A model generated the notes under the pieces. It made no database searches and was not told where the DNA came from. It saw nothing but the letters and a program-made list of their open reading frames with translations. Positions 14,806-60,810 of a stretch of 64,000 nt of DNA are shown piece by piece. The stretch comes from Anolis carolinensis (Eukaryota): assembly GCF_035594765.1 (NCBI RefSeq), contig NC_085844.1:188248107-188312106 (forward strand), in the 5' to 3' direction. Positions within the stretch are counted from its first letter, which is position 1. Each line of letters opens with the position of its first letter. Position numbers and translations under genes: made by a program.

Positions 14806-14975
14806 GCTTAGAGGATTCTTGCAACTGACATCCAAAGAAGTAAATTTTCCAAACTCTGTTCTGATAGATAAGGGATAATTTACAGCTTTCAAACCTATGC
14901 TCCCTTCTTCTACATTATGTCCATAAACAAATGTCTTTTAGTTTGCTCATCATGTTTTATTCCTTGTCTACTTAC

Positions 14976-15258
14976 CTCCACCATTTTTTTGACACAAATA
15001 TGGAAACCGCCATACATTCCCCAGTCCCACTGAGTAGCCAATCTGAGCCAAAATGTACTGAAGCTTGTTGTTCCATGCTGGCCTGTCCTCAACAGGCTCC
15101 TCCACATCTGGCTGCTGTTTGCTCCAGTTTTCTCCAGCCACATTTAGGACACTGTGCCTATAGTCCACAGGTTCCTCAAGGGCCAGTAGATCAGCCACTG
15201 ATTCTGTGACAGGTTCATTGCTTTGTTCCCGCTGGGTCACTTTGCTGCTCTTAGGCAT
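14976..15258 (-). CDS. SLC6A17: SLC6A17 first coding exon (sodium-dependent neutral amino acid transporter NTT4/XT1), 283 coding bp; exon probably begins at acceptor 15384
   Basis: [33 protein letters not shown]...[36 protein letters not shown]; the [19 protein letters not shown]-terminus fits SLC6A17 rather than SLC6A15; donor G|gtaag; acceptor ttctgtttgctttcttgttccacag| at 15385. Confidence 0.96.
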
Positions 15259-16031
15259 TGGGACTGTCTAGCTCAACCTCTCCAATTATATGATGAAAGT
15301 GGTAGAAGCAAGATGGAGGCAGTATATTTCAAAACAGGTGCTGGATTTTGAGAATGGACTTCAGAAGTTGGTCATCTGTGAGACCTGTGGAACAAGAAAG
15401 CAAACAGAATAAAAATGTAAAAATACATGAGATTTCTCTACTTTCTTCTCTGCTGAAATACACATGTCCGTGCATTTCACTGTCTACAACAAACACACAT
15501 AATGAAGAATGGTTATTAGTTAAACATTTCAAATCCTTGCAGACCTCAGCATTTACTGGTCAAGTTGACTGAAAGATTCGAGGCTTTGCTAATAAAGTTC
15601 AATCACTTAGAGATTCACTATCCAGTGCCTTTAATCCTCTCCTTTTCTTATTGTTTTGAATCTATGGAAGCTTAGGGATTGGCATTCACTTACTATAATA
15701 ACTTGCTTCACATTTATTGCATGCCAAAAATGTGTCAGAAGCTATTTAGCTTAAAATATGGTGGCATTAAAAAGGCATATGCTTTGGCAGTTTTTCTAAG
15801 GGAACAGCAAATATCAAGCTTATCTCTTCATTGCTGACATTATATAAGTAACTGGGATGGCCAGCAATCTTCTGTTAAATTGTCTGTGACAGTTTTACAA
15901 AAGATAGTATCTGTAGAACATTTGGCATTGCTTGTGAGGCCATCGATTACTATGCCTCTTCTTCATTCATAAACTGCAGTCTCTCAATAGAGGTCCTTAG
16001 CTCATATAGTCTGGCACTATCCCACTAACAT

Positions 16032-16444: not shown

Positions 16445-18175
16445 ATACTACTACTACTACTACTACTAATAATAATAATAATAATACTTTAATTTTCTAT
16501 CTTGCCTTCATCTCCTTGGAGGGCCTCAGGGCGGCTAACATGGGGCCAAGCCCCAAAGAACAAAATAAAATGCATGTAAACAACATCTTCAAGCAGATAA
16601 GAACACATTAAAACCATAGTAATGCAATATAATACAACAGAAAACAGTAAAATAATAAAATGATAAAATGCAAAGACCACCATTCAGTAACAAAGTGAAT
16701 AAAAGGGATGGCAGTCTAGACAAAAGTACGAAGATATGTATTGTAATGTCATTTGGGAGCATAAGTGGACAAAGTTCTAAAACATTCTCTGAGAGAGTTG
16801 AGGGGGGGGGGTAGGAAAACAGGTTACTTCCAACAAGGAGCAGAATAAAGTGCAAAATATAGTGATTTCGTTTAAATAGGGTTTTGTTGTGGGAGACTAA
16901 TTATTCAAAGGCGCACTGGAAGAGCCAGGTTTTTAACTCCTTTCTAAACACTGACAGGGTGGGTGCTTGCCTAATCTCCCTGGGAAAGGAATTCCAAAGC
17001 CGGGAGGCCACTACGGAAAAGACCCTCTCCCTCGTCCCAACAAGGACCACTTGTGATGGAGGAGGGGAGAGAGAAGAGCCTCCTTAGAGATCGGAGAGAT
17101 CATGCAGGTTGATGGGGGAAATGTGGTCATGAAGGTAGGCGGGTCCCAAACCGTTCAGGGCTTTTTAGGAGATAACCTGCACCTTGAATTGGGACTGGAA
17201 AATGATTGGCAGCCAATGGAGCTCCCTAAACAGGGGGGTTGACTGCTCCCTTTAATTTGCTCAAGTTAGTAGTCTGTCCGCCAATTGCTAAACCAGTTGT
17301 AGTTTCCGGGCCATCTTCAAGAGCAGCCCCACGTAGAGTGCATTGCAATAGTCCAATCTAGAGGTAACGAGGGCATGGACCAATGTGGCCAAGTCAGACT
17401 TCACAAGGTATGGTTGCAGCTGGTGCACAAGTTTTAATTGTGCAAAGGCCCTCCCGACCACCACCAACAACTGCACATCAAGTGTCAGTGTTGAGTCCAG
17501 GAGGACCCCCAGACTGAGGACCTGTGTCTTCAGGGGGAGTGTAACCCCGTTGAGCACAAGTTGCCACCCTATACCCCGATATGACATACAACTGACCTGG
17601 AGGATCTCTCTCTTGTCAGAATTGAGCTTCAGCTTGTTCACCCTCATCCAGCCCATCACAGCAGCCAGTGGCTGGCCCAATATCCAAGGGGCTTCCTTGG
17701 ATTTAGGTGGAAAAGTGTAGTAGAGTTGAGTGTCATTTGCGTAGAGATGGCACCGAACTCCAAAACTTTGGATGACCTTGCCCATCAGTTTCATGTAGAT
17801 GTTAAAAAGCATGGGGGCCAAAATAGTACCTTGCAGGACCCCACAGGTCAATGGCCAAGGGTCCGAGCAGGTGTCACCCAGCTTCACCGACTGGGAACGG
17901 CCCTCCAGGAAGGATCAGAGCCACTGCAGAGCACTACCACCAAGACCCATCACGGAGAGCCAACCCAGAAGGATACCATGGTCGATGGTATCGAAAGCTG
18001 CTGAAATGTCCAAGAGGACCAGTAGGGACACACTCTCCCTATCCAGCTCTCTGCAGAGGTCATCCACCAAGGTGACCAAAGCCATCTCGGTACTGTGCTC
18101 AGGCCTGAAACCAGACTATTATTGGTCTAGAAAATTGGTTTCTTCCAAGAATCCCTGGAGCTGAGAAGCAACCAC
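16445..18175 (-). mobile_element. L2-clade LINE, 5'-truncated, degenerate reverse transcriptase
   Basis: ORF 17288-17887 has GVLQGTILAPMLFNIYM, HLYANDTQLY (YADD-like), LDYCNALY; 3' stem-loop and (TAG/TTA)n tail near 16445-16540. Confidence 0.9.
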
Positions 18176-19206
18176 TAAGAGTAATTCAGGTTCTTGAATA
18201 TATAAGGCTTGCCCCATAGTGAATAGAAACTCCATGCTTACCAAGATGGAGATATGTAGGAACTGGCCAGAAGACATAGGCAATGATAAAAGGTTATGGC
18301 ATTGATGGTGAATGTGTTGCCCTTCAGACATTGTTGCAATGCAACTCCCATTAACTCTATACAGAATATTCAATGGTGAGATATTATGGGAGTCATAGTC
18401 CAACAACATTTGGAAGGTCACAGTTCCCCATCCCTGAACTGTGCAAAGCATCATGTGTCACCTTGGCCTACATATAACTTGGCACATATTCAGGATCACT
18501 TTACACTCTTGAACCACAGAACAGTGCAGATTCACATTTGCTATAATATTTCTGAATATAGAATCCAGAGAAACCATTGACAGTAACTTAACTGGCATAG
18601 AGTATGGTGTGAATTTGTTTATGCATCATAGGCTTATTTTAAAAAGAGCAGAGTGGGACTGAGTTCACTGAGAGTAGCTGTACTTTACAATTCTCCCTTC
18701 AATTGTGCCATCTAATCAACAGTAGAAGCAAAACTACTCAATGTACAATTACTGTTATTCTGATAATATCAGACATTAAGTAATTGGCAGGGGGTTGGAC
18801 TAGATGGCCCAAGTGGTCTTTCCACGTACATTTTTATGTCTCAGGGCACTCTTAAAGCAAAATATACTAACACATGATCATTAAAGATGAATTTTATAGA
18901 GTTAGAAACTGATGTAAACAAGAAAAATATTCCCCTAGCACATGTCAAACTAACATGGTCCTGGGATTTAAACTTATGTGGTACTAATTCATACAAGACC
19001 TTGGTGTCTTAACTAGGGCAACTATAACTAAATACGACATGAGGTTAATAAACACCTGCTTTTAGTTGCAAAGTGACCTTTACAGTACACTTCTGTGCAA
19101 GTTTACACAGGAGTAACTTGCATGGGTAAGCAAGCAGAAGATCACAGTTTCATTCACAGAAACAGTACCATCACAGGGAGTAGCTTCCCAAAATTTGTAA
19201 CTGCTA

Positions 19207-22427: not shown

Positions 22428-22584
22428 NNNNNNNNNNNNNNNNNNNNNNNNNNNNNNNNNNNNNNNNNNNNNNNNNNNNNNNNNNNNNNNNNNNNNNNNN
22501 NNNNNNNNNNNNNNNNNNNNNNNNNNNNNNNNNNNNNNNNNNNNNNNNNNNNNNNNNNNNNNNNNNNNNNNNNNNNNNNNNNNN
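22428..22584. other. Assembly gap (157 N)
   Basis: Run of N bases. Confidence 1.
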
Positions 22585-23252: not shown

Positions 23253-24024
23253 TGAGGGTTGAATGAAAAGTAATGCCTCCACCTTCGTAACTCCCCAACA
23301 GATGGCAGTACTGGTATGCGGCAGGTACTGGCTTGTTCAGTAGACTCTCCAGTACAGTTCCATTTGGTGGGAAGCCTTAGCATTGAACGGTTGTGTTATT
23401 AAAGTGCAAAGTATGGAACCCTGTGCAGACGGTCAGTCAATGCGATGTAAGCAACGTGTAGTCTTTGAATTCTTGACAGAAGAAGGTGTCACCCCAAAGG
23501 AGATTCATCAGAGAATGCAAGCTGTTTATGGTGATAGTGTGAGTACTGTGTGTTGTTGGGTGAGTAAGATTAAAGATGTTGAAGTGGGAACATCTGACTT
23601 GCGTGACAAACAAAGAGTTGGACGTCCTGTGACAGCAACCACAGTGTTTCACAAGCAAAAGGTTGACAGATTGATTCAGGACGATTGTCATATCACTCAG
23701 AGAGAAATTTCAAGCATAATCGGCATTTCACAAGAACGTGTGGGTCACATTATTGCTTTGCTTGGCTATCGGAAGATCTGTGCACGATGGGTACTGTGAA
23801 AGGCTGGTTGCAGAAACAGAGTATCAACTTCTTCCGTGATGGCTTCAGAAAACTTGTTCATCATTGGCAGAAATGTATCCAATTGGCTGGTGATTATGTG
23901 GAAAAGTGAATAGTGATAGTTAAAGAACACATTCCAAGGATTATTTTGGCATTTGATTTATTAAAATATTCCCATCCAAACCCAAGTAACGAAGGTGGAG
24001 ACATTATTTTTCATTCAATCCTTG
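23253..24024 (+). mobile_element. Internally deleted mariner transposon
   Basis: ~38-bp TIRs (gagggttgaatgaaaagtaatgcctccaccttcg), TA TSD; N-terminal HTH ORF ending KICARWV joined out of frame to C-terminal WQKCIQLAGDYVEK*. Confidence 0.92.
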
Positions 24025-31882: not shown

Positions 31883-32299
31883 TGTTGTCAAAGGCTTTCA
31901 TGGCCAGAATCACTGGGTTGCTGGGAGTTTTCTGGGCTGTATGGCTATGTTCCAGAAGCATTCTTTCCTGACATTTTACCCATATCTATGGCAGGTATCC
32001 TCAGAGGTTGTGAGGTCTGTTGGAAACTAGGCAAGTGGGGTGTTATAGATCTGTGGAACGTCCAGGTGAGGGAAGGAACTCTCTCTGTTGGAGACAAGTG
32101 TGAAAATTGCAACTGGCCAGCTTTCAGCTTCAAAGCCTGGCTGCCTTCAGCCTGGGGGAATCTTTTATATAAAAGCCCACTTGCCTAGTTTCCAACAGAC
32201 CTCACAACCTCTGAGGATGCCTGCCATAGATGCAGGCGAAACGTCAGGAGAAAATGCTTCTGGAACATGGCCACACAGCCTGGAAAACTCACAGCAACT
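31883..32299. mobile_element. Penelope-like element, inverted pair of terminal fragments
   Basis: Same family as the 11.9 kb copy; 12-bp flanking duplication CAAAAACCAAAT (31871-31882, 32300-32311). Confidence 0.8.
32208..32248 (+). ncRNA. Minimal type I hammerhead ribozyme motif (Penelope-associated), intact core
   Basis: CCT-CTGAGGA-T-GCCTGC-catagat-GCAGGC-GAAA-CG-TC-AGG: conserved CUGAnGA and GAAA boxes, 6-bp stem II, GUC cleavage triplet ending 32245. Confidence 0.75.
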
Positions 32300-32311
32300 C
32301 AAAAACCAAAT

Positions 32312-33800
32312 CGCGGAAACCCCAGCGCGCAGCTCATCCCTGCCCACCTCGGTGCACCCGAACGAGGGCTCTGCGGTGCGGGCCTGCCAAAGGAGCGGGG
32401 AATCGGGCTCCACGCGTCCATTATTCATGAGGGCGGCGCGGCGGCTGCTGCTTCTCCTCTCAATGTTACCATCAAGGTCAGGCTCCAGGAGGCATCGATG
32501 GCGGGAGGAGGGCCTGGGACCTTGCTTTCCTGGTGAGGCGGCAAAGGCGGGCTTCTCCCCCCTTTCAGAGGCAAGCCACTCATCCTTACCTATCCTTCCT
32601 GCCTGCCTGCCTGCCTCCAAGGGCCCGGGCCCTTCAATTCCGCCCCAAGGGCCAGTTATTTGTAGGCTGCAGGTGAGGCTCGCCGTCCCCTCGGCTCGCC
32701 CATGTCTCCTTCTCCCCCGAGCCCCGTGTCTGTTCCCGCCTGGCAACGGAAGCTTCTCTCCGCGGAGGAGGCGGCCTGACCTGTTTCGAGGGAAACGGAG
32801 GGAAGGCCAGATGGGGCAGGAGAGCGCCGTCGGGCCGGAGGGGGCGGAAGGGGCCTCCGTACCGTGGCATGAATGCCGTGTGCCCCCCCCCCCCCTCCTT
32901 TCACTGCCAGGGCCCGGGGTCAATGCTGGGGAAGGTGGGATTTGCAGTTTGCCAAAGGCGGCTTAAGAGCTCCTAGGACTCCATGGCCTTGAGCCAGGGC
33001 AGTTGAAATGCTGCCAAAAGTATGTTCCGTTCATAAGGTATAGATGCGCCCTGAGAGGCTTACCTGCGCGGTGGCTTCAGCGGGACGACGCCGGTAGGGC
33101 TCCTGCAGCTGCGGAAGGCGAAGGCAACCTGGCCCGGGGCGCCTCTTCCTCTTTCCCGGGTGCCTTTTCCCTCCGCCGCTCCCGCTCCTCCGCGCTTGCC
33201 TTCAGGTGCCGGCCCTGGTGCCTTTTGCTGGCTCGAGCAGGAGCTGAACGCGCGCGCGCGCGCCCGCCCAACTTTGCACCGGTGGCTCGTGCCGGTGGCG
33301 CGCGCCGGTGCTGCCGTGTGCTGATTGCTGCTGCTGCTGCTAATGCCCAAAGCGCGGGCGCGTGAAGGAAGGGAGGGAGAGCGCGAGCGCACCTGGGAGC
33401 GTCGTCTCTGTGTGTGTGTGTGTCTGTCTGTCTTCCCTCCTTTCCCACCCCTTCCTGAGGGAAAGGCGAGCGCGTCTTTTTTGGCTGGGCGCGCGTGACG
33501 TGGGCTTGAGTCACTCGCCCAAGGATGCGCGTCAGTGACGGGAGAGGAGGGGGCAAAGCGCGGGGCTTGAGGGGTTGGCTGCACCAAGCCCTGGGGTCCC
33601 TGGGGAGGGCTGAGCCTCGCTGCCTGCCTGCCTGGACGACTGGGGCCAAGGCCGACCGCGCCACCTGATGCTGCGTGGGCCAAAGACCAGCCTGGCTCAC
33701 TGCGGGGAAAGTGAGCCCCTGAGCAAGGCGGCTGCGAGCGGAAGCGCACGGAGGCCCTTGGCTTTGGCCTCCGCGAAGAGCAGGACGCCTCCTTCCAAGA
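32312..33800. promoter_or_regulatory. SLC6A17: CpG island / SLC6A17 promoter region
   Basis: Very GC- and CpG-rich stretch in an AT-rich background; TGACGTGG (33496), AP-1 TGAGTCA (33507), paired CRE half-sites CGTCAGTGACG (33530-33540). Confidence 0.85.
33064..33400 (-). other. SLC6A17: Putative non-coding exon 1 (5' UTR) of SLC6A17; 5' boundary approximate
   Basis: Consensus donor CAG|GTAAGC at 33064/33063 inside the CpG island; no minus-strand ATG in the segment; ~17.7 kb upstream of exon 2. Confidence 0.7.
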
Positions 33801-34513
33801 ATCACAGAATCCTCGAGGTGGAAGAGAACTCAAGGGCTATTGGAAATAACTACACCCAGTCTCTGGGCACTCACCCCTTTGGAAATAAATGGCAATCCGT
33901 AACTTTATTGAAAATGGAAAAAAATGATGCCATATCCCTTTGGCAAATGTGAATCTCCATGAATATGTGGAGATCACCTTTTGAAAACCACTAGTCAAGA
34001 AAAGCCAACCCTTTGAACAAGTGATATTCATAAGCATTCATGTAATGGCACACTGGTAACTCAGCTGTTAAACTGAAGAACCATGTCTTTGAAGGACAAA
34101 GACATGCTACTATAAAAATATATATTTGGTTAGCAGAGGATGGTTGTTTCTTTCAAGTTGAAATTGCAGTTGCCCAAAAGATATACATTCCCTTGAAACC
34201 TCTTGGTGTTTAAAATATGCAACCAGAGATCTTGTCTTCTTTGAAAAATAACATATCTTGTTTACTAACAAACTTCTTGTATTAATTCACCTTACAGGCA
34301 CATTTCTTATTGAAGGTCAGTTATAAATAGGATGTAGTTTCTCTCCGTGTTGAGTACACAGGGTATCATTCTTAATCAATAGTCCATAGTCTTCAAGCAT
34401 ACTTGTACTCACTGAAGTCCATAAGCATACTCCTATACTGAAGTCCAAACAGCAAAATGCATGCATCCACCTCCACTGAAATCTGATACAAAATGAGAAA
34501 AAAATCTGATGCA

Positions 34514-40265: not shown

Positions 40266-40754
40266 ATAAAGTTGCTAAGCACACAGCATTAAAACTTTCT
40301 CTGCAGCCTCACCTTGTTTATGGAACTCCTTTCTGAGAAAGATCAGGTGGGTCTCATGCCAAATATCTGATATGTGTTTAGAATCGTATTGCTGCATAGG
40401 AACTTGCCAATGAGAAAAAAAAGAGAGAAGGGGGATATCACTTTGGTAATCCTGGTGGGCAGAAGAGTGATAAACAAATGTCTTTAATAAATAATAAAGG
40501 AAAGACCTCTCTTCACCGAACATTTACATTAAAAAGAGGGCCTCCCTTCCTACTGTCTCATATTGACAACATTCACAAATGATATATTCCCAACTAAGGT
40601 TGAAAATCTATGTCTTTTTACCTGGGAGCTAGCCCCCATTTAATTAGTGGGATTTACTTCTTAGTATGAATACAGAGAATTAAATCCCACTAATTAGTTT
40701 AATCAGGGGGATTTACTTCTTAGTACATATACAGAGAAGGGCCTAAATTCCCTA

Positions 40755-41472
40755 AAGGCACTCAATCCCATTTGATCTTGGAAGCTAAGCAGGGTCAGCG
40801 CTGCTTAGCACTTGGATGGGAGACCAGCAATGAATACCAGGTGTTGTTTATTCGTCCAGTTGCTTCCAACTCTTCATGACCTCATGGACCAGCCCACACC
40901 AGAGCTCCCTGTTGGCTGTCACTACTCCCAGCTCCTTCAAGGTCAAGCTAGTCACTTCAAGGATACCATCCATCCATCTTGCCCTTGGTCGGCCCCTCTT
41001 CCTTTTTCCTTCCGTTTTCCTCAGCATCATCTTCTCCAAGCTTTCCTGTCTTCTCATTATGTAGCCAAAGTACTTCATCTTTGCCTCTAATATCCTTCCT
41101 TCCAGTGAGCAGTCGGGCATTATTTCCTGGAGTATGGACTGGTTGGATCTTCTTGCGGTCCAAGGCACTCTCAGAATTTTCCTCCAACACCACAGTTCAA
41201 AAGCGTCTATCTTTCTTCACTCAGCCTTCCTTATGGTTCACCTCTCACATCCATAGGTTATTACAGGGAATACAATTGCTTTAATTATGCAGATCTTTGT
41301 TGCCAGTGTGATGTCTCTACTCTTCACTATTTTATCGAGACCAGATACTGTAGATGATATTTCAGAGGACAGAAATGGAAAATCACTTTTGAGTATTTGT
41401 TGCTTAAGAAAGCTCTATGAACTTCATGGTATCATTATAAGTCAGCAGGTGGTTTGAAGGCATATATACACA
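40755..41472 (+). mobile_element. 5S rRNA-derived SINE interrupted by BovB fragment
   Basis: gatcttggaagctaagcagggtcag...cttggatgggagacc..gaataccaggtg is 5S-like; body resumes after 41340 and ends ttgaaggcatatataca; related degenerate copy near 12530-12700. Confidence 0.65.
40843..41340 (-). mobile_element. RTE/BovB LINE 3' fragment nested in a 5S-derived SINE
   Basis: PWTARRSNQSILQEI..KYFGYIMRRQESLEK..GKRKRGRPRARWMDG. Confidence 0.9.
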
Positions 41473-52420: not shown

Positions 52421-54489
52421 GAAATGTCCTAAAACACTTCACCAAAGCTTCTTTTCTCATCTCTTGAACAGTGCCAGCAGTGAAGGGTGCTAAAGACCTA
52501 TGCTTCATACATTAAAATGCCTCTTCCTTGTTCTGTGTCAGCTTGACCTTGCTAAAGAAAAAGGAAAGAAAATAGTTTGTGGGTTAGGTTAGTACAAATT
52601 GAGTATTCCTTATCTACAGTGTCTGAGACCAGAAGTACTTTGGATTTCAGATTCCCCCCCCCCCCATTTTAGAATATTTGTATGTACACAAGGAGTTATG
52701 TTGGATATGGGAACCAAATCTAAGCACAATATTCATGTATGGTTCATGTACATTTTATGCACATAGCAATATTTTTAATAATTCTGTGCATTAAACAAAG
52801 TGTTTATACATTGAACCATCAGAAAGCAGAGGTGTCACTATCTCAGCAACCCATGTAGATGATTTTAGACTTGAAGAATTTCAGATTTTAGATAATGGAT
52901 ACTCAACCTATATCATCACTATTAAGAACTCCAGTGGGATCCACAATTCCTTCGGGTGAGAGAGGTGTGGGAATAGAGATGAACAGCTGGTCAGGGGTTG
53001 ATGCAGGGGACTAGAGACATATAACAAAGATCCACATTGCACCTTCTAATAAGCACTGTATACTGTATAAGAAGGCAATATTTGTGTGTATTTAATGCCT
53101 ACTGAAACACAATCAAACTTCCTTTCTAGGCCATCAGTCATCAGTAGACGTACAGACCTCTAGAGCTTTCTACAACTCTGTGTCTCTATCTCAGCCAGAC
53201 TCCCAGAATGAAATATTCTTATTTTTTGGACTCCAACTCCTGGGGTATATCCCCTAGGTACAATAAAAGCAGTCAATGTCATCATTTTAATTGCATTGAT
53301 TCTCTCTGATGGAATTTTGAGACTTGCAATTTCACAAGGTGCTCAGAATTCTTGAGTACAATCCCCTTGAACTACAACACAAGATCTCTTTCTGAGGAAA
53401 TTATAAGCCCTTCATAGAAATGCAGAACAAACAATTCTATAAGATGGAGACTAGTAATTAAAATGGTATCAAAGCCAGCATGATGTTGGGTGTTGTGAAA
53501 GGAGTCAAGGATACTAGGGTTCAAATTTTCACTTGGAAACAGACTCGATGATTGTGAGCAAGTCACATACTCTCAACTTCAGGTGAAGGCAATAGTAAAC
53601 TGGTTCTGAACAAATCTTGCCAAGAAAACTTCTTAGAGTCTCCAGGAATCAGAAATGACTTGGAGGAACACCACAACATCAACACAAGGACAATAATTAT
53701 TGTTTGGACATGCCTTAACATTTTTAGCCAACATGGTAAGTAGCTGGGGATACTTGGAGTTATAGTCCAAAAGGTTACTTTTCCAGGCTCTGCTTTGAGT
53801 TCTCAATTATCCCATTCTCATTTTGCTTTCCCCCATGACTCCTTTGCTTCCTCTGTCCTGCTTTGCACCCAATGCATACTAATACGAAGGAAAGGGCAAG
53901 CCAGGCAAGTGATGGAGTTGTCAGTGGCTACTGCTGCTATTCTTTTTTCTTGTGGTTACCATTAGTTGGTTCAATGTTTAAAGAGTCTTAGGGTACATGG
54001 GGAGCCAAAGGAAGGAGAAAAAGATGAGGGATGTGGCAGCTAGAGGTTCCAGAAGTGCAGATCAGCATTAGGCCTATAGGAGTGTGGGCATAGATAAGCC
54101 TTTGGAAATGCCAGCCCTGAGCCCATCCTCAGTTAAATACACTTAAAACTGCAGGCGGGCACATATTTTTAGGAAAGATCATGACACATTTCTCTGTTCC
54201 TGTATTTTTGTTCATTCGCTCATCCTTCTTGTAGTTATTTGTCCCAGCTTGCTACCTGGTTTTATGAGTCAGTCTTCAATTTGAGACAGCAGCACTGAGG
54301 AGTTTCCAAAACATAGGAATTGCACATTAGTTCCTTCCCTTCAGGTGTGTTCTGTGAAAGAAACTGTGTAGAACAGTTAGAAATCCTGATTAAGATGTCA
54401 AGGCACCAATGATCTGGAAAACAAATAAAAACTTTATTACAGGAATTCCCTTCTCGATTGGAAAATTACTCAGGCACTAATCTAAACAG

Positions 54490-54887
54490 AGGCCCCTCTG
54501 ACCTCGAAGGGACCCCCAGCAGCCCAGCCGGACCCCCGTTTCCTGACAGACACCCCTCAGGCGGTGACAGGGCTACAGCAAGAGGAGACCCCCAGCACAC
54601 TGATGCCCTCGGAGCCCCCCTTCACCCCGGGGGCTGCAGTGGGCCGGCCAGGGAGACCCCCAACGCCCCAGCAAGGGGCTGCTCCCAGCCAGCCGGCCCC
54701 CCGGGGGTCCTCCTCTCCGTCCCACACCACCCTCGCCATCGTCAGCCTCCTGGGAATCGCGCTCGTCTTGGTGGCCGTCGTGGTTTCCTTGGTTTGCCGG
54801 AGGAGGAGGAGGCGTCAGGAGGGGCCACTCCACCCTGCTGCCCTCGGTGAGGAGACCCATTGGCTGAACCTTCCCGAGAAGACCTGA
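54490..54887 (+). pseudogene. Orphan coding-like segment: Pro/Thr/Ser-rich stalk + transmembrane helix + basic stop-transfer + short tail (CXCL16-like C-terminus); terminal exon or duplicated gene fragment
   Basis: Open frame from 54486 to TGA at 54887: ...SSSPSHTTLAIVSLLGIALVLVAVVVSLVCRRRRRRQEGPLHPAALGEETHWLNLPEKT*; in-frame stop at 54483; possible phase-1 acceptor ctaatctaaacag|; followed by UTR-like sequence. Confidence 0.55.
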
Positions 54888-55159
54888 AGCCAAAGCTAGC
54901 GCACTTTAGTTGCCGGGACCACTTTGTGACGGAGGGGCCGACCACGTTTATTTATATGTCTGTCTGTCTGTCTGTCTATACTGAGTCCTTGAAGGTACTC
55001 CCCCCCTTCCTCCCCCTCCCCTCCTCTGCATTTCCACTTCCTGTTTTGTTTTCTTTTCACAAAGAATATAAATAATGGCTTATTTTTTTAAGCCTGCCCT
55101 GCCTTTGTGAGTTTTGTGGCCATGCCATTCCTTGTGGGGTGCCCCATTGAAAAGCACCT

Positions 55160-55362
55160 TAAATGTTTATTTAAATGTACAATTATGCAGGTTTTTAATG
55201 TATATTTCAATTTTTATTGTAATTTTTTTTAAGTTTGAAAGACTTTTAAATCTGATGTAAACTGTTTTTCTGAAGTATATGTTTATATTGTAAGCCGCCC
55301 TGAGTCCCCTGATGGGTGAGAAGGGCGGGGTAGAAGTGATGCAATAAATAAATAAATAAATA
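55160..55362 (+). mobile_element. L2-type 3' tail
   Basis: AT-rich UTR, tgtaagccgccctgagtcccct...gggtgagaagggcgggg stem-loop and (TAAA)n; similar tails at ~1.3, 47.0 and 49.4 kb. Confidence 0.75.
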
Positions 55363-57038
55363 GCTTCATTGTAGCAAAGTGCTGAGAGAGAACTGATGGG
55401 TAGAGAAGAAATCGGGAAATATCCAGTTTACATCATCTTAGGTAGACTCACACTGGAGCTTTCACGTGGGCAGCCCCGTTCTTCTGGTACGAGCAGAATT
55501 CTGGGAAATGTAGTTTAGGCCTTTTGAAAACTCTGCTACAGAGGTCCTTGCCTTCCCAAACTACATTTCTCTGAAATCGGCTCACACCGGAAGAACAGGA
55601 TTGCCTGCATTACAGCCCCAATGTGATATGGCTGATAGAGGGAGGACACTTTGAGTCACTGCATCTTTGTTATTTATACCAGCTCTGAGGCATTTTTGAC
55701 TCTTCAATGCTAAGTGTTGTTTGCACTTCCAACATTCTGTAAAGCACCGAAAGAAGGCTAAGCATATGTGGGATCAAGTACACAAAAAGCCTACAACGGG
55801 TAAAACTCATCAGCAGGATTAAGTACATCTATTTGCACCTTACCTAGCGGTTAGCATCCACCCAGTTAAATTGCTGTTTTCCATCTCTCCCCCAACAATT
55901 TTAGCCTAATTTTAGAGATTTTAAATGATATTTTAAAGATTTAATAATAATCATGTGGATTATTTTATGTCTTGTTTATTTATGTCAGTTTATAATTTAC
56001 TGAGTTGTTCTTGATTCATTTCTTGATTTGTTTACATGTTACTATCGGCACTGAATATTTGGGGAGATAGGGTGGGTTATAAATAAGGTTTCAAACCTAT
56101 TCCAAGGAGAGATTGGTGTATTTGTTTGGTACTTCTGTTTTTGTACCACCAGCCCTGCCCCATGCTGACACATTTTCAATTATAACTTTAATATTTTGGG
56201 GGGGGGGCACACAAATCGGTCCTTCTAGGACATGAGTGGAGGCATAGCAGAATCAGCTTATCATTGTACTAGAACAGATAGCCAAGTCCAGTGAAAAGCA
56301 ATCTGAGTACCTGCGAGCAGTAATGATGCTTTCCACATGCCCAGATACGACTGAAATAGAAGTACCAGCCCACCTGACCAATGACTTTTTAGTTGTAAAA
56401 GAAAAGGGTCTAGAATTTGTCACTGTTCTCAAAGTTGCTATGATGAGTAATCTAGACATAAGCGTGAAAATCACCTCAGTCCGTTTCTAAGCAACTCTTT
56501 GAAGAGGTGCCAAAGAGCTACACCAAAGCACACAAGCCATTTTGTTGCTATTTATTTTGCAGGATTGAGGAGTTCTTGCTAATTTTGGGCATCCTGGGCC
56601 AGCCATGTCTTGAACTGTGGAACACACAGCTGAATGTATTGTTCAATTATGATAGCATAGCATCCTTGTGGGAAGGCTGCTGAAAACATCACTGACTCAT
56701 ACATACAGCTTTATTTGGGGAAAACAAGGGTGAGAAACATGCACCCTGCCAAATGTTGCTGGATTGTTACTACTGGAATTCCTCGCTACTGATTTATGGG
56801 CGGCTGGGACTTACAGTCCAGAGCTATTTGGAATGTTCCATGGCTTTCACTTTTGAAGCAGACCCTAATAGCCATTGACAAGCCTTGCTGTAATGCTTAT
56901 GAATTCACAACAAATAGGTACCCGTCACAATCAGTTTTAAAAATAAAAGATTTACTGCCATTTTTGTGAATAGTGTTAGCTGAGCCTTAATACTTTTCTT
57001 CATTATACAGTACAGTATTATCATTTTAGTCATGGTGT

Positions 57039-57937: not shown

Positions 57938-58692
57938 CAAACATGCTCTTTATATTTGTGACTTTATATAGAAAACCTGTGTAGTATATAAACATTGGTT
58001 TCTAAGCTTGCATTATATGCTAGCTATGCATGCTGCAGTATTGGAGGTGGGGGTTGGGGTTCACTGAATCCATTTTGGTGACTCTTGCTCTCATCACCAA
58101 CCTTTTTGATGCATTTTGGATCATTAAACAATAGGCTTGATCGATCCATGAAAAATTTGATTCTAAACTCGTTTCAAAACTAGAGGGGGGCAGCGTTTCG
58201 TTTCTGAAGGTATTTCCGAATTTTGCCCCCCAAAAAATTCGAAATTAACGAAAATTCGTTATTTTCAAAATTAATTCGTTAATGGCAGACGCGCATGCGC
58301 AATTCCCAAAAACAGCACAGAGGGAGAGGACTTTACAGGACTCTCCCACCCTCATTTTTTGAGTGATCTTCTTCAAACTTGGTACAGTGGTAGAACACAT
58401 TTAGTACTGATAGCTCACCAAAATTTGGAACGTTTCCCTTATCCTCTGATTTTTGGAGAATTTTCATAGCTTTTATAATAAACCATTTTTTAATAATTGC
58501 AGAAATCTGTTCCTGGTTTGAAAGTCTTATTTCCTGTTAAATTGGGTTGTCTTTACTGTGAAAGTCATTGTTCTACTTCAGAAACTTTGTTTTTGTGGCT
58601 GAAACTTTGTTAAATTGGTGTGTGTGTGATATATACTGTGTATATATATATATATAGTCCCTGCATATGTGTGTGTGTGTGTGTGTGTGTAT

Positions 58693-58852
58693 AGGTAAAG
58701 GTAAAGGTATCCCTTGACATTAAGTTCAGTCATGTCTGACTCTGGGGGTTGGTGCTCATCTCCATTTCTAAGCCCAAGAGCCAGTGTTGTCCATAGACAC
58801 CTCCAAGGTCATGTGGCCGGCATGACTACATGGAGTGCCATTACCTTCCCAG
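58693..58852 (-). mobile_element. Sauria SINE 3' fragment inside the hAT element
   Basis: ggtaaaggtaaagg tail then SINE body truncated at ttaccttccc. Confidence 0.85.
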
Positions 58853-59216
58853 AAACACCCAGAAAATGGGAATTCCAGACAGGAAACAATCAGGGCCAGC
58901 TAATACCTCCCAACAAAGGATTCCCCCAGGTAGGAAGCAGCCAGGCTTTGAAGCTGCAAGGCTATTCAATGCTAATCAAGGTGACTAATTGCAGCATTCA
59001 CACTTGCCTCCCACAGACAAGAGTTCTTTCTCCCACCCTGGACCTTCCACAGATATATAAACCCCACTTGCCTAGCTTCGCACAGACGTCAAAACCTCTA
59101 TGTCTGCCACAGATGTGGGTGAAACGTCAGGAGAGAATGCTTCTGGCACATGGCCATAGAGCCCGGAATACATACCACAACAGTGTGATCCCGGCCATGA
59201 AAGCTTTCGACAACAC
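58853..59216 (+). mobile_element. Penelope-like element terminal fragment inside the hAT element; hammerhead core disrupted
   Basis: Homologous to the 11.9 and 31.9 kb copies (gccatgaaagctttcgacaac end); CTGAGGA core partly deleted. Confidence 0.75.
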
Positions 59217-60810
59217 AACCACAGTATCCATTCAAGTTCATGTAGCGTGGTATGGAGAGACCTGTATTGGGGGGAGGGAGGGTGAGAATCTGGGCCCCTG
59301 GGAGTCGTAGTCCTCCCTCCCTCCCTCCCCGGGAGCAGCCGAGGACGGGCCTGGCCCACACCCCCTCGCATCCCGGGCCTCTTCCTCCTCACCGCCGGGC
59401 CCCTCTCTGTTTCTCTCGGTCTCTCCAGGCCTGAGCTGAGGCGAGGCGGCGGCGGCGGCGGCCATTTCCCCCCTCCGTCTTCCTCCTCCTCCTCGGCCTC
59501 CTTCCCCCTCGCCCCCTCCCATTGGCTGAGCCCGTGACGCCCCTTTTGCTGAGGGGCAAAAGGAAAGGGCCTGAATGGTGGGAGTTTGGGTGATTTGCAA
59601 AAGCTTTTTTTCCTAACGAAAAAAACGAAGAAATAAGAAAAAACGGCCTCTTGCGATTCGAAACCGCGATATCCAGACGTGTGGACAATCAAGGCCGTAT
59701 ATTGCTTCAAAACAAACGAAAATAACGAATTAATAACGGGTAACGGGGAAATCGAATTATTTGAGCAAGCCTATTAAACAATACCAGCTTCCAATTCTGG
59801 TCACATCTCCATTTCTCTGGCTTTGTGTTTACAAACAGAATTACTGCTGTGTACTAATTAAATACTTCGTGACTACCAATTTAATTTTATTCATAGGGAT
59901 TATTCCAGCTCTGTTTGGAGGGGAAGGGTAGAGAGTAAAGTGCCATTATAAATGTCTGGGCTCTGTTATTAGAGCAGGGCTAGATGCTGAGCTGCATGTT
60001 TTTGATACCACTTGGAAGTGCATTGGAAAAGGGTTTTGCACAAACAAGGAGTCCAGGACGACCTCCTTTAAAAAAAACATTTTCCTACATGATGGTTAAT
60101 TTCCATATAGAAAAAGATATAAGTTTGGTTATTCATATTGCTGATGGCTCCATAGGCAGGAAAATTCTCACTATACCCTTCTGAGTAATTTCTTGAAAAA
60201 TTAACTAAAACAGTTTGAAACAATAACTCAGAATAAAGCCATTACCATAAAAGTCAGCATTTTTTAAATTTAAAAATCTTGTAAAGCAGGCAATTTTTTT
60301 TAAAAAAAACTTTACAAGGTAGGCAGTTTATAACCCTACAGAAGTTATTGTACTGCAACTCATAAAATTCATCTCCCATTAGCTCCTGTTGTTTAAGGAT
60401 GGTAGGAATTTCATTCATATAGTATCTGAAAAGGGAACATTTGCTGTGTACTCTTACCTTTGAACTACAGGCAGATTCCTTTCCCCCCCATATTTACTAT
60501 CAGAGGGATTAAGGCTCCATTTACACTGTCATATAATGCAGCTTGAAACTGCATTATATGAGTTACACTAACCATTATATGATTAGTGTTGACTGATATA
60601 ATGCAGTTTTAACTGCATTATATGAGTCTACACTGACCATATAATGCAATTTCAAACTGCACTACGATGACAATGTAGATGGGGAGTTATGGAAACCTGA
60701 GAGAATTAAGGTCTCTGAAGTAATACACTATGTCATAGACTCCACAGCACCTTTAGACATCACCATACCCAAATTATAATGGCTATGTAATATAACAAAT
60801 TGTATGACTA

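Follow-up and report, generated by a model that had tools for sequence, protein, structure and literature searches.

The window analysed here, a 64,000-nucleotide stretch of Anolis carolinensis (NC_085844.1, positions 188,248,107 to 188,312,106), contains an isolated open frame for a stalk that is mucin-like, a transmembrane helix and a short tail, and the question raised by this locus is whether the frame belongs to a gene of its own or came from another gene and, in the latter case, how it came. The initial annotation, made from the letters alone, tentatively compared the frame with the membrane chemokine CXCL16 and offered two alternatives: a recently transposed gene fragment, or a terminal exon from a lineage-specific membrane-protein gene that has escaped annotation. 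On sequence grounds, the fragment is a partial duplicate of the known gene CXCL16, not the gene itself. The first alternative is thereby borne out and the second is left without support, as the frame duplicates a known gene and has no usable acceptor.

The Open Frame and Its CXCL16 Parent

The stop-to-stop frame is present as first described (54486-54887, + strand, 133 codons). It consists of the C-terminal part of a mucin-like stalk (codons 1-82; 54486..54731), in which 57% of the residues are P, T, S or A, a transmembrane helix (54732..54794), for which the top 19-residue Kyte-Doolittle window is 3.1, and a region in which a cysteine and six arginines (seven in the parent) are followed by a 23-residue cytoplasmic tail (54795..54887) ending in EKT, an ending that is common to other squamate CXCL16. 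The motifs reported 3′ of the frame are also found at their sites: an AU-rich one at 54947 (TTTATTTAT), a variant poly(A) signal at 55065 (AATATAAATA) and a tract rich in GT. The locus had been called a GC- and CpG-rich island, of which only the first half holds: GC steps from 0.41 in the 500 bases preceding the frame to 0.69 in the frame, but the observed/expected CpG ratio of the frame is only 0.47. So low a ratio at such a GC content points to inherited GC-rich coding sequence, not to a CpG island. A 133-codon frame with a comparable helix was found in none of 1000 dinucleotide shuffles of 54401-54950, whereas an open frame of 133 codons, helix ignored, was found in 430 of them, so that its being uninterrupted carries no weight.

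The only ATG is codon 40 (54603) and the 5′ end is without a start codon. The AG at 54488-54489 falls within T-E codons that are also present in the parent protein, and pyrimidines make up just 55% of the preceding 20 bases, so that it is an unconvincing acceptor. At the 3′ side, the sequence shared with a second, RefSeq-like version continues to at least 55157, ~90 bases beyond the proposed poly(A) signal at 55065; within 54888-55500, the canonical AATAAA occurs only in a LINE tail, at 55343-55360.

The protein comparison proposed in the initial annotation returned an annotated parent, CXCL16 of A. carolinensis (XP_008123195.1; 93% identity, E 4e-69), and 68-69% identity to CXCL16 of A. sagrei, so the CXCL16 label was right. 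These identities suggest that the copy postdates the split from A. sagrei. By tblastn, 54484..54887 (+) is a copy of CXCL16 codons 132-265 plus the stop codon (93% over 134 columns). Relative to RefSeq parent residues 132-265, the frame has eight residue changes, all of them in codons 5-65, and one arginine fewer, and the helix is identical in protein sequence. A C-terminal profile of 12 non-Anolis relatives, its columns drawn from an alignment of which the frame was itself a member, matches the frame with an E of 2.7e-15 (next best, 1.9). Pfam searches with the frame alone gave no hit above the cut-off and four weak helix matches below it, and Rfam gave no match at the fragment locus. The full-length parent protein matches the Pfam family CXCL16 (PF20902) at residues 31-105. 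A search of cluster representatives yielded 36 relatives of CXCL16: PF20902 is matched by all 12 that were scanned, 11 of them above the cut-off, and CXCL16 or CXCL16-like is the source name of five of the 10 representatives looked up and of further cluster members. Matches of the frame in the ESM Atlas are sub-0.9 look-alikes among other stalk-helix proteins and are superseded by the direct match to CXCL16. When metagenomes were scanned with the parent protein, 197 candidate stretches yielded one locus, of 17 residues on a 330-kb contig, which we take for a chance match.

The fragment is like A. carolinensis CXCL16 in its stalk, helix, Cys-Arg stretch and tail, and the stalk, single transmembrane helix, basic stretch and short tail of the CXCL16 domain plan, as described in PMC8446271, are all in it. 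It is unlike CXCL16 in having no signal peptide, no PF20902 domain and none of the first 27 stalk residues, and in having an SLC6 transporter gene as its neighbor. No annotated protein that pairs the C-terminus of the fragment with another N-terminus was found in protein searches spanning 73-2000 residues, which returned nothing but models of anole CXCL16, either complete or shortened at the N-terminus. The newer RefSeq model of anole CXCL16, XP_062813080.1 (LOC103282335), bears the name "uncharacterized" and has a different first exon with no evident signal peptide, which is probably an annotation error. CXCL16 has been described as a GC-rich and often "missing" gene of sauropsids (10.1101/2024.09.20.614078). 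The main text of that preprint does not mention Anolis, and its supplements may show the synteny of anole CXCL16. Anole CXCL16 itself is already annotated; a second, partial copy is without a published description in our literature search.

Upstream Exons and Neighboring Sequences

The statement that no upstream exons accompany the frame holds for the whole window, from which CXCL16 residues 1-131, i.e., the signal peptide and the chemokine domain, are absent. A tblastn search with the N-terminal parts of three parent proteins and a profile found nothing among 3388 six-frame segments (best E, 0.25), and planted control pieces scored E values of 1e-14, 3e-5 and 0.47 in the same search. Residues 1-31 have low-complexity chance matches only in the window, and the chemokine domain PF20902 with its cysteines is missing from it. 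The sole assembly gap in the window is at 22428-22584. That the frame is the final exon of the gene itself, the 5′ exons lying far off, was considered and rejected: no such exons are found in the window, and the transporter gene fills the upstream side.

This SLC6-family transporter is the sole host gene identified in the window, for which 11 frames were covered by the Pfam scan. Its first coding exon is at 14971..15267 on the - strand (Pfam SNF, E 1.3e-17) and, judged by the N-terminus, presumably belongs to SLC6A17. It is transcribed away from the CXCL16 fragment. A CpG island at 32200..33850 (GC 0.65, CpG observed/expected 0.71) is likely the transporter promoter, and the fragment lies ~21 kb past this island and points away from it. 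In mammals, CXCL16 is flanked by ZMYND15 and MED11, and its synteny is altered outside mammals (10.1101/2024.09.20.614078).

Several other elements were noticed in the window. A mariner-type transposase N-terminal fragment (weak HTH_48 match) is found at 23344-23796 (+), and a degenerate 5S rRNA match (47.2 bits) at 40734-40852 has a LINE-like fragment directly next to it (40851-41216, -). A hAT/hobo-like element of 1642 bp at 58132-59773 has the ends TAGGCTTG and a perfect 8-bp target duplication, TTAAACAA, and contains a SINE piece. Inside this element, at 59220-59560 (-), is what seems to be a promoter with a first exon taken up from elsewhere; it has a CCAAT box and GC boxes, an ATG followed by a run of Ala codons and a GT donor, and is directed at the CXCL16 piece.

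Two Versions in the Sequencing Runs

Window DNA, whole or in part, is present in 20 of the 24 public sequencing runs listed, none of which is recorded as RNA, a blank that says nothing about expression. Contigs were compared from four of the 24: X1, which is possibly the source of the assembly, X6 and X17, which come from other studies, and X19. The 5′ junction at 54486 is bridged without differences by contigs of X1 (53000-54708), X6 (54314-54527) and X17 (54367-54549) and is unbridged among the pieces listed for X19. As contigs of three of the four runs span it, an assembly error is ruled out. A second version carrying the RefSeq residues is found in X6 and X17. It has the RefSeq residue at six of the eight changed codons (among the 40 of 120 rows shown, which do not include codons 5 and 65). 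Its contigs (54800-55101 in X17; 54596-55046 and 55017-55157 in X6) run unbroken through the stop codon to 55101 and 55157, respectively. Together, the bridged 5′ junction and the RefSeq-like second version indicate that the fragment duplicates the 3′ end of the gene and did not arise by misassembly. Letters of both versions occur together in the X6 contig 54596-55046, and the contigs therefore leave the two unphased.

The possibility that the two versions are alleles of one locus was also rejected, on the basis of depth bookkeeping in X17. The second version covers ~37 bases of the bin 54404-54520, and the observed depth of this bin, 6.87, equals that expected for a breakpoint at 54484 (6.87), whereas 7.91 or 12.42 would be expected for an allele that shares the flank. 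Paired contigs in X1 and X6 end at 55157, and both versions are apparently identical up to the start of a repeat. In X1, a parent-like contig is lacking at 54518-54638, and a second contig seems joined over only ~35 bases, 54674-54708, as estimated from bin depth; this short join may be left over from the parent path or may mark another copy that is shorter still. Contigs of X1 and X19 have an allele with Trp in place of Arg at 54798. Contigs of the presumed RNA runs, X17 and X19, also extend over the non-coding flanks and are therefore not readable as transcription. An empty-site joint from ~54485 to 55361 is not among the 15 of 27 joints shown, nor do the 24 loose ends shown, of 947, include one at 54486, and neither blank carries weight.

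The Two Ends of the Copy

The 5′ breakpoint, at ~54484-54486, lies ~27 codons beyond the chemokine domain (residues 31-105). The human CXCL16 stalk begins and ends in exon 4 (PMC8446271), and from this single-exon human stalk it follows that the break in the anole sequence is probably mid-exon; the copied unit seems to fall within one exon. TAAA (54483..54486, +) is the sole direct repeat of at least 4 bases common to both ends and fits either a short target duplication or chance. No direct repeat of at least 8 bases is found at the junction.

The stop codon is followed by parent-derived 3′ sequence (54888..55157, +) with the AU-rich motif, a GTCT microsatellite and a pyrimidine tract with AG at 55064, and then by the 3′ end of an L2-type LINE (55160..55361, +; 5′ limit approximate), which the initial annotation did not list and which gives a hint to how the piece arrived. 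This LINE end comprises an AT-rich stretch, a stem-loop (inner stem, 55295-55328) and a terminal (AAAT)n with four AATAAA. It folds at a z of -3.3, and two of four tail copies beat their shuffles. Its last 70 bases match six further places in the window by blastn, eight such tails are present in the 64 kb, and contig depth is in the thousands from ~55187, as in a high-copy repeat. The tail motif is also found behind a reverse-transcriptase fragment (17291-17914, -). This decayed LINE fragment (16480-18200, -), which matches Pfam RVT_1 only and has a 3′ tail ending in ATT/AGT repeats, is one that we take, from its sequence, to belong to the L2 clade. The CXCL16 unit is thus closed by an L2-type end on the same strand, and tails of this type are common enough (eight in 64 kb) for their adjacency to be due to chance.

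The 3′ limit of the homology to the parent is bracketed between 55158 and roughly 55570. An X1 contig, 55542-55844, is without differences, which suggests that the homology is over by there, and no contig across 55361 is among the contigs listed. No A-run longer than 4 occurs in 55041-55600, i.e., there is no poly(A) there. The strong acceptor-like tract (85% pyrimidine) ends at 55064, a further GT is at 54997, and at 54847-54848 a GT in the window stands against a GC in the second version of X17. A splice from 54847 to 55064 would shorten the cytoplasmic tail; such a joint is not among the 15 of 27 shown.

Origin of the Copy

We propose, with a probability of roughly 0.45, that the fragment is a ~880-bp, 5′-truncated and likely dead copy that was made by L2 reverse transcription of a LINE-tailed CXCL16 transcript. 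The parent CXCL16 would have an L2 tail within its final exon or immediately after it; an L2 protein would have bound the stem-loop of this tail in the CXCL16 transcript; reverse transcription would have been primed at the (AAAT)n and halted after ~880 bases, inside the stalk exon; and the copy, without promoter or acceptor, would now be decaying through CpG loss. This mechanism is favored by the same-strand tail, its stem-loop and (AAAT)n, the lack of poly(A), the few bases shared by the two ends and the extension of the shared sequence to at least 55157. It is also consistent with what has been described for this group of elements. The proteins of stringent LINEs such as L2 require and bind the stem-loop and terminal repeat of their own tail (PMC4176376; PMC3747384), and L2 inserts leave short duplications of 5 bp (PMC4245944) or 1-9 bp (PMC4476161). 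L2 is active in this lizard and its inserts are mostly 5′-truncated, with <7% of the polymorphic ones being full length (PMC5389967). Host RNAs are reported to need to acquire an L2 tail for mobilization, and this lizard is known to have U6-L2 chimeras (PMC4476161).

Several known systems resemble parts of this arrangement. The fragment is like the U6-L2 and U6-AnolisSINE2 chimeras (PMC4476161) in that 5′-truncated host sequence precedes a short, same-strand L2 end with a simple repeat and, as in the U6-L2 chimeras, poly(A) is absent and at most a few bases are duplicated; it is unlike them in that the cargo is a protein-coding exon, not U6, and that one copy is known. With AnolisSINE2 and its partner, Anolis LINE 2 (PMC3747384; PMC4176376), it shares a stem-loop and a terminal repeat, a predicted handle for the L2 protein. 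Unlike AnolisSINE2, it has no internal promoter or signs of a family, and its template would be a host polymerase II transcript. Like L1 processed pseudogenes (PMC5470649), it is a 5′-truncated, promoterless and dispersed copy of a 3′ end, but without a poly(A) remnant or a long target duplication. In being a short, dispersed piece of host DNA, it is like the cargo of the hobo/hAT elements of anoles (PMC3014272), from which it differs in that no terminal inverted repeats or 8-bp duplication surround it. Partial duplicates and chimeras of host RNA and L2 are both kinds that are already known.

Other origins are less probable. A duplication at the DNA level, in which a piece of CXCL16 was captured by a DNA transposon or during break repair, the tail came along as a passenger or arrived separately, and the copy is dead, is the most probable of these and has points in its favor: hobo/hAT elements of anoles often take up genomic DNA (PMC3014272), the hAT-like element with apparent host cargo and an 8-bp target duplication (58132-59773) is only 3 kb off, the homology to the parent extends beyond the variant poly(A) signal, and the acceptor-like tract at 55064 (85% pyrimidine) could belong to an unspliced intron of the parent. 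Against it, the CXCL16 fragment is not enclosed by terminal inverted repeats that have a target duplication (a search for such enclosing repeats gave one hit with a 5-bp repeat in ~4.8 million pairs, which is at chance level by a rough estimate), and it would have to be a coincidence that the 3′ end meets the terminus of a LINE on the same strand. A more improbable origin is a template switch, in which the L2 reverse transcriptase copied ~200 bases of its own RNA and then jumped to CXCL16 RNA near 55160, so that the parent would be tail-less. The layout of the fragment equals that of the U6-L2 chimeras, and U6-L2 and U6-AnolisSINE2 chimeras are known from this lizard, as is a 5′-truncated U6 before a short L2 piece from platypus (PMC4476161). 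However, both versions are apparently identical past 55157 and as far as the repeat, which is more simply explained by a parent that extends into the tail, and a poly(A) remnant is missing at 55160. Least probable of all, we consider, is an L1 retrocopy of CXCL16 mRNA whose poly(A) and target duplication were lost or overwritten by a later L2. It would agree with the 404 retrocopies counted in this lizard, which are credited mainly to L1 by a correlation in other species (PMC3136929), and with the 5′ truncation typical of L1 processed pseudogenes (PMC5470649); yet neither a poly(A) remnant nor a direct repeat of at least 8 bases is found, even though the frame differs from the parent by just ~4%.

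Fate of the Copy

Because no promoter, acceptor or partner exon was found, the copy is likely a pseudogene. The frame differs from the parent by seven synonymous and seven to nine nonsynonymous differences. Five of the seven synonymous differences are CpG losses on the side of the window, in keeping with decay of the copy. The differences are clustered, nine being found in the first 110 bases (54486-54595) and seven in the other 289 of the frame; this cluster may be due to chance, to a parent haplotype that is divergent or to gene conversion affecting the 3′ part.

That the copy is now a working last exon, used by a phase 1 splice from some upstream exon to 54490 or by a start at codon 40 and giving a chemokine-less stalk-anchor protein, appears from the sequence very unlikely. 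It is suggested by the lack of any residue change relative to RefSeq in codons 66-133, save one lost arginine, by the confinement of the nonsynonymous differences to the stalk (9/9 vs. 4/7 of the synonymous ones; Fisher p 0.06), by a pN/pS of 0.39-0.50 in the frame and by CpG losses that are skewed to synonymous sites (5/22 vs. 1/32 at nonsynonymous sites, p 0.036), this skew being a weak hint that may argue against plain neutral decay. However, the p value of the skew becomes 0.08-0.16 once a Pro-to-Leu change is counted along with the Arg-to-Trp allele, the pN/pS, which includes the branch of the constrained parent, is not distinct from 1 (p 0.07-0.16), and a neutral copy with eight to 16 changes retains its frame 68-83% of the time. 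The Arg-to-Trp change at 54798 is carried by contigs of two runs, the acceptor is weak, and no partner exon or annotated chimeric protein was found. Still less likely is the combined reading in which an L2-tailed CXCL16 RNA would have moved and the resulting cassette would have been kept by selection, expressed as a stub or spliced to a new exon.

Significance

A dead fragment of this kind is of small importance in itself, and it can mislead CXCL16 orthologue calls and misplace CXCL16 reads. If the parent proves to be tailed and the copy to end at the tail, the locus would be a clear example of how a stringent L2 moves the transcript of a protein-coding gene, and would suggest a genome-wide count of lizard retrocopies ending in L2 tails vs. 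poly(A). Expression and constraint of the copy, if they too applied, would make it a young membrane-anchor cassette from exon shuffling; were the combined reading of L2 transfer and selection true, such shuffling would have been caught at an early stage, in one anole lineage, and carried out by a LINE clade thought unable to move mRNAs.
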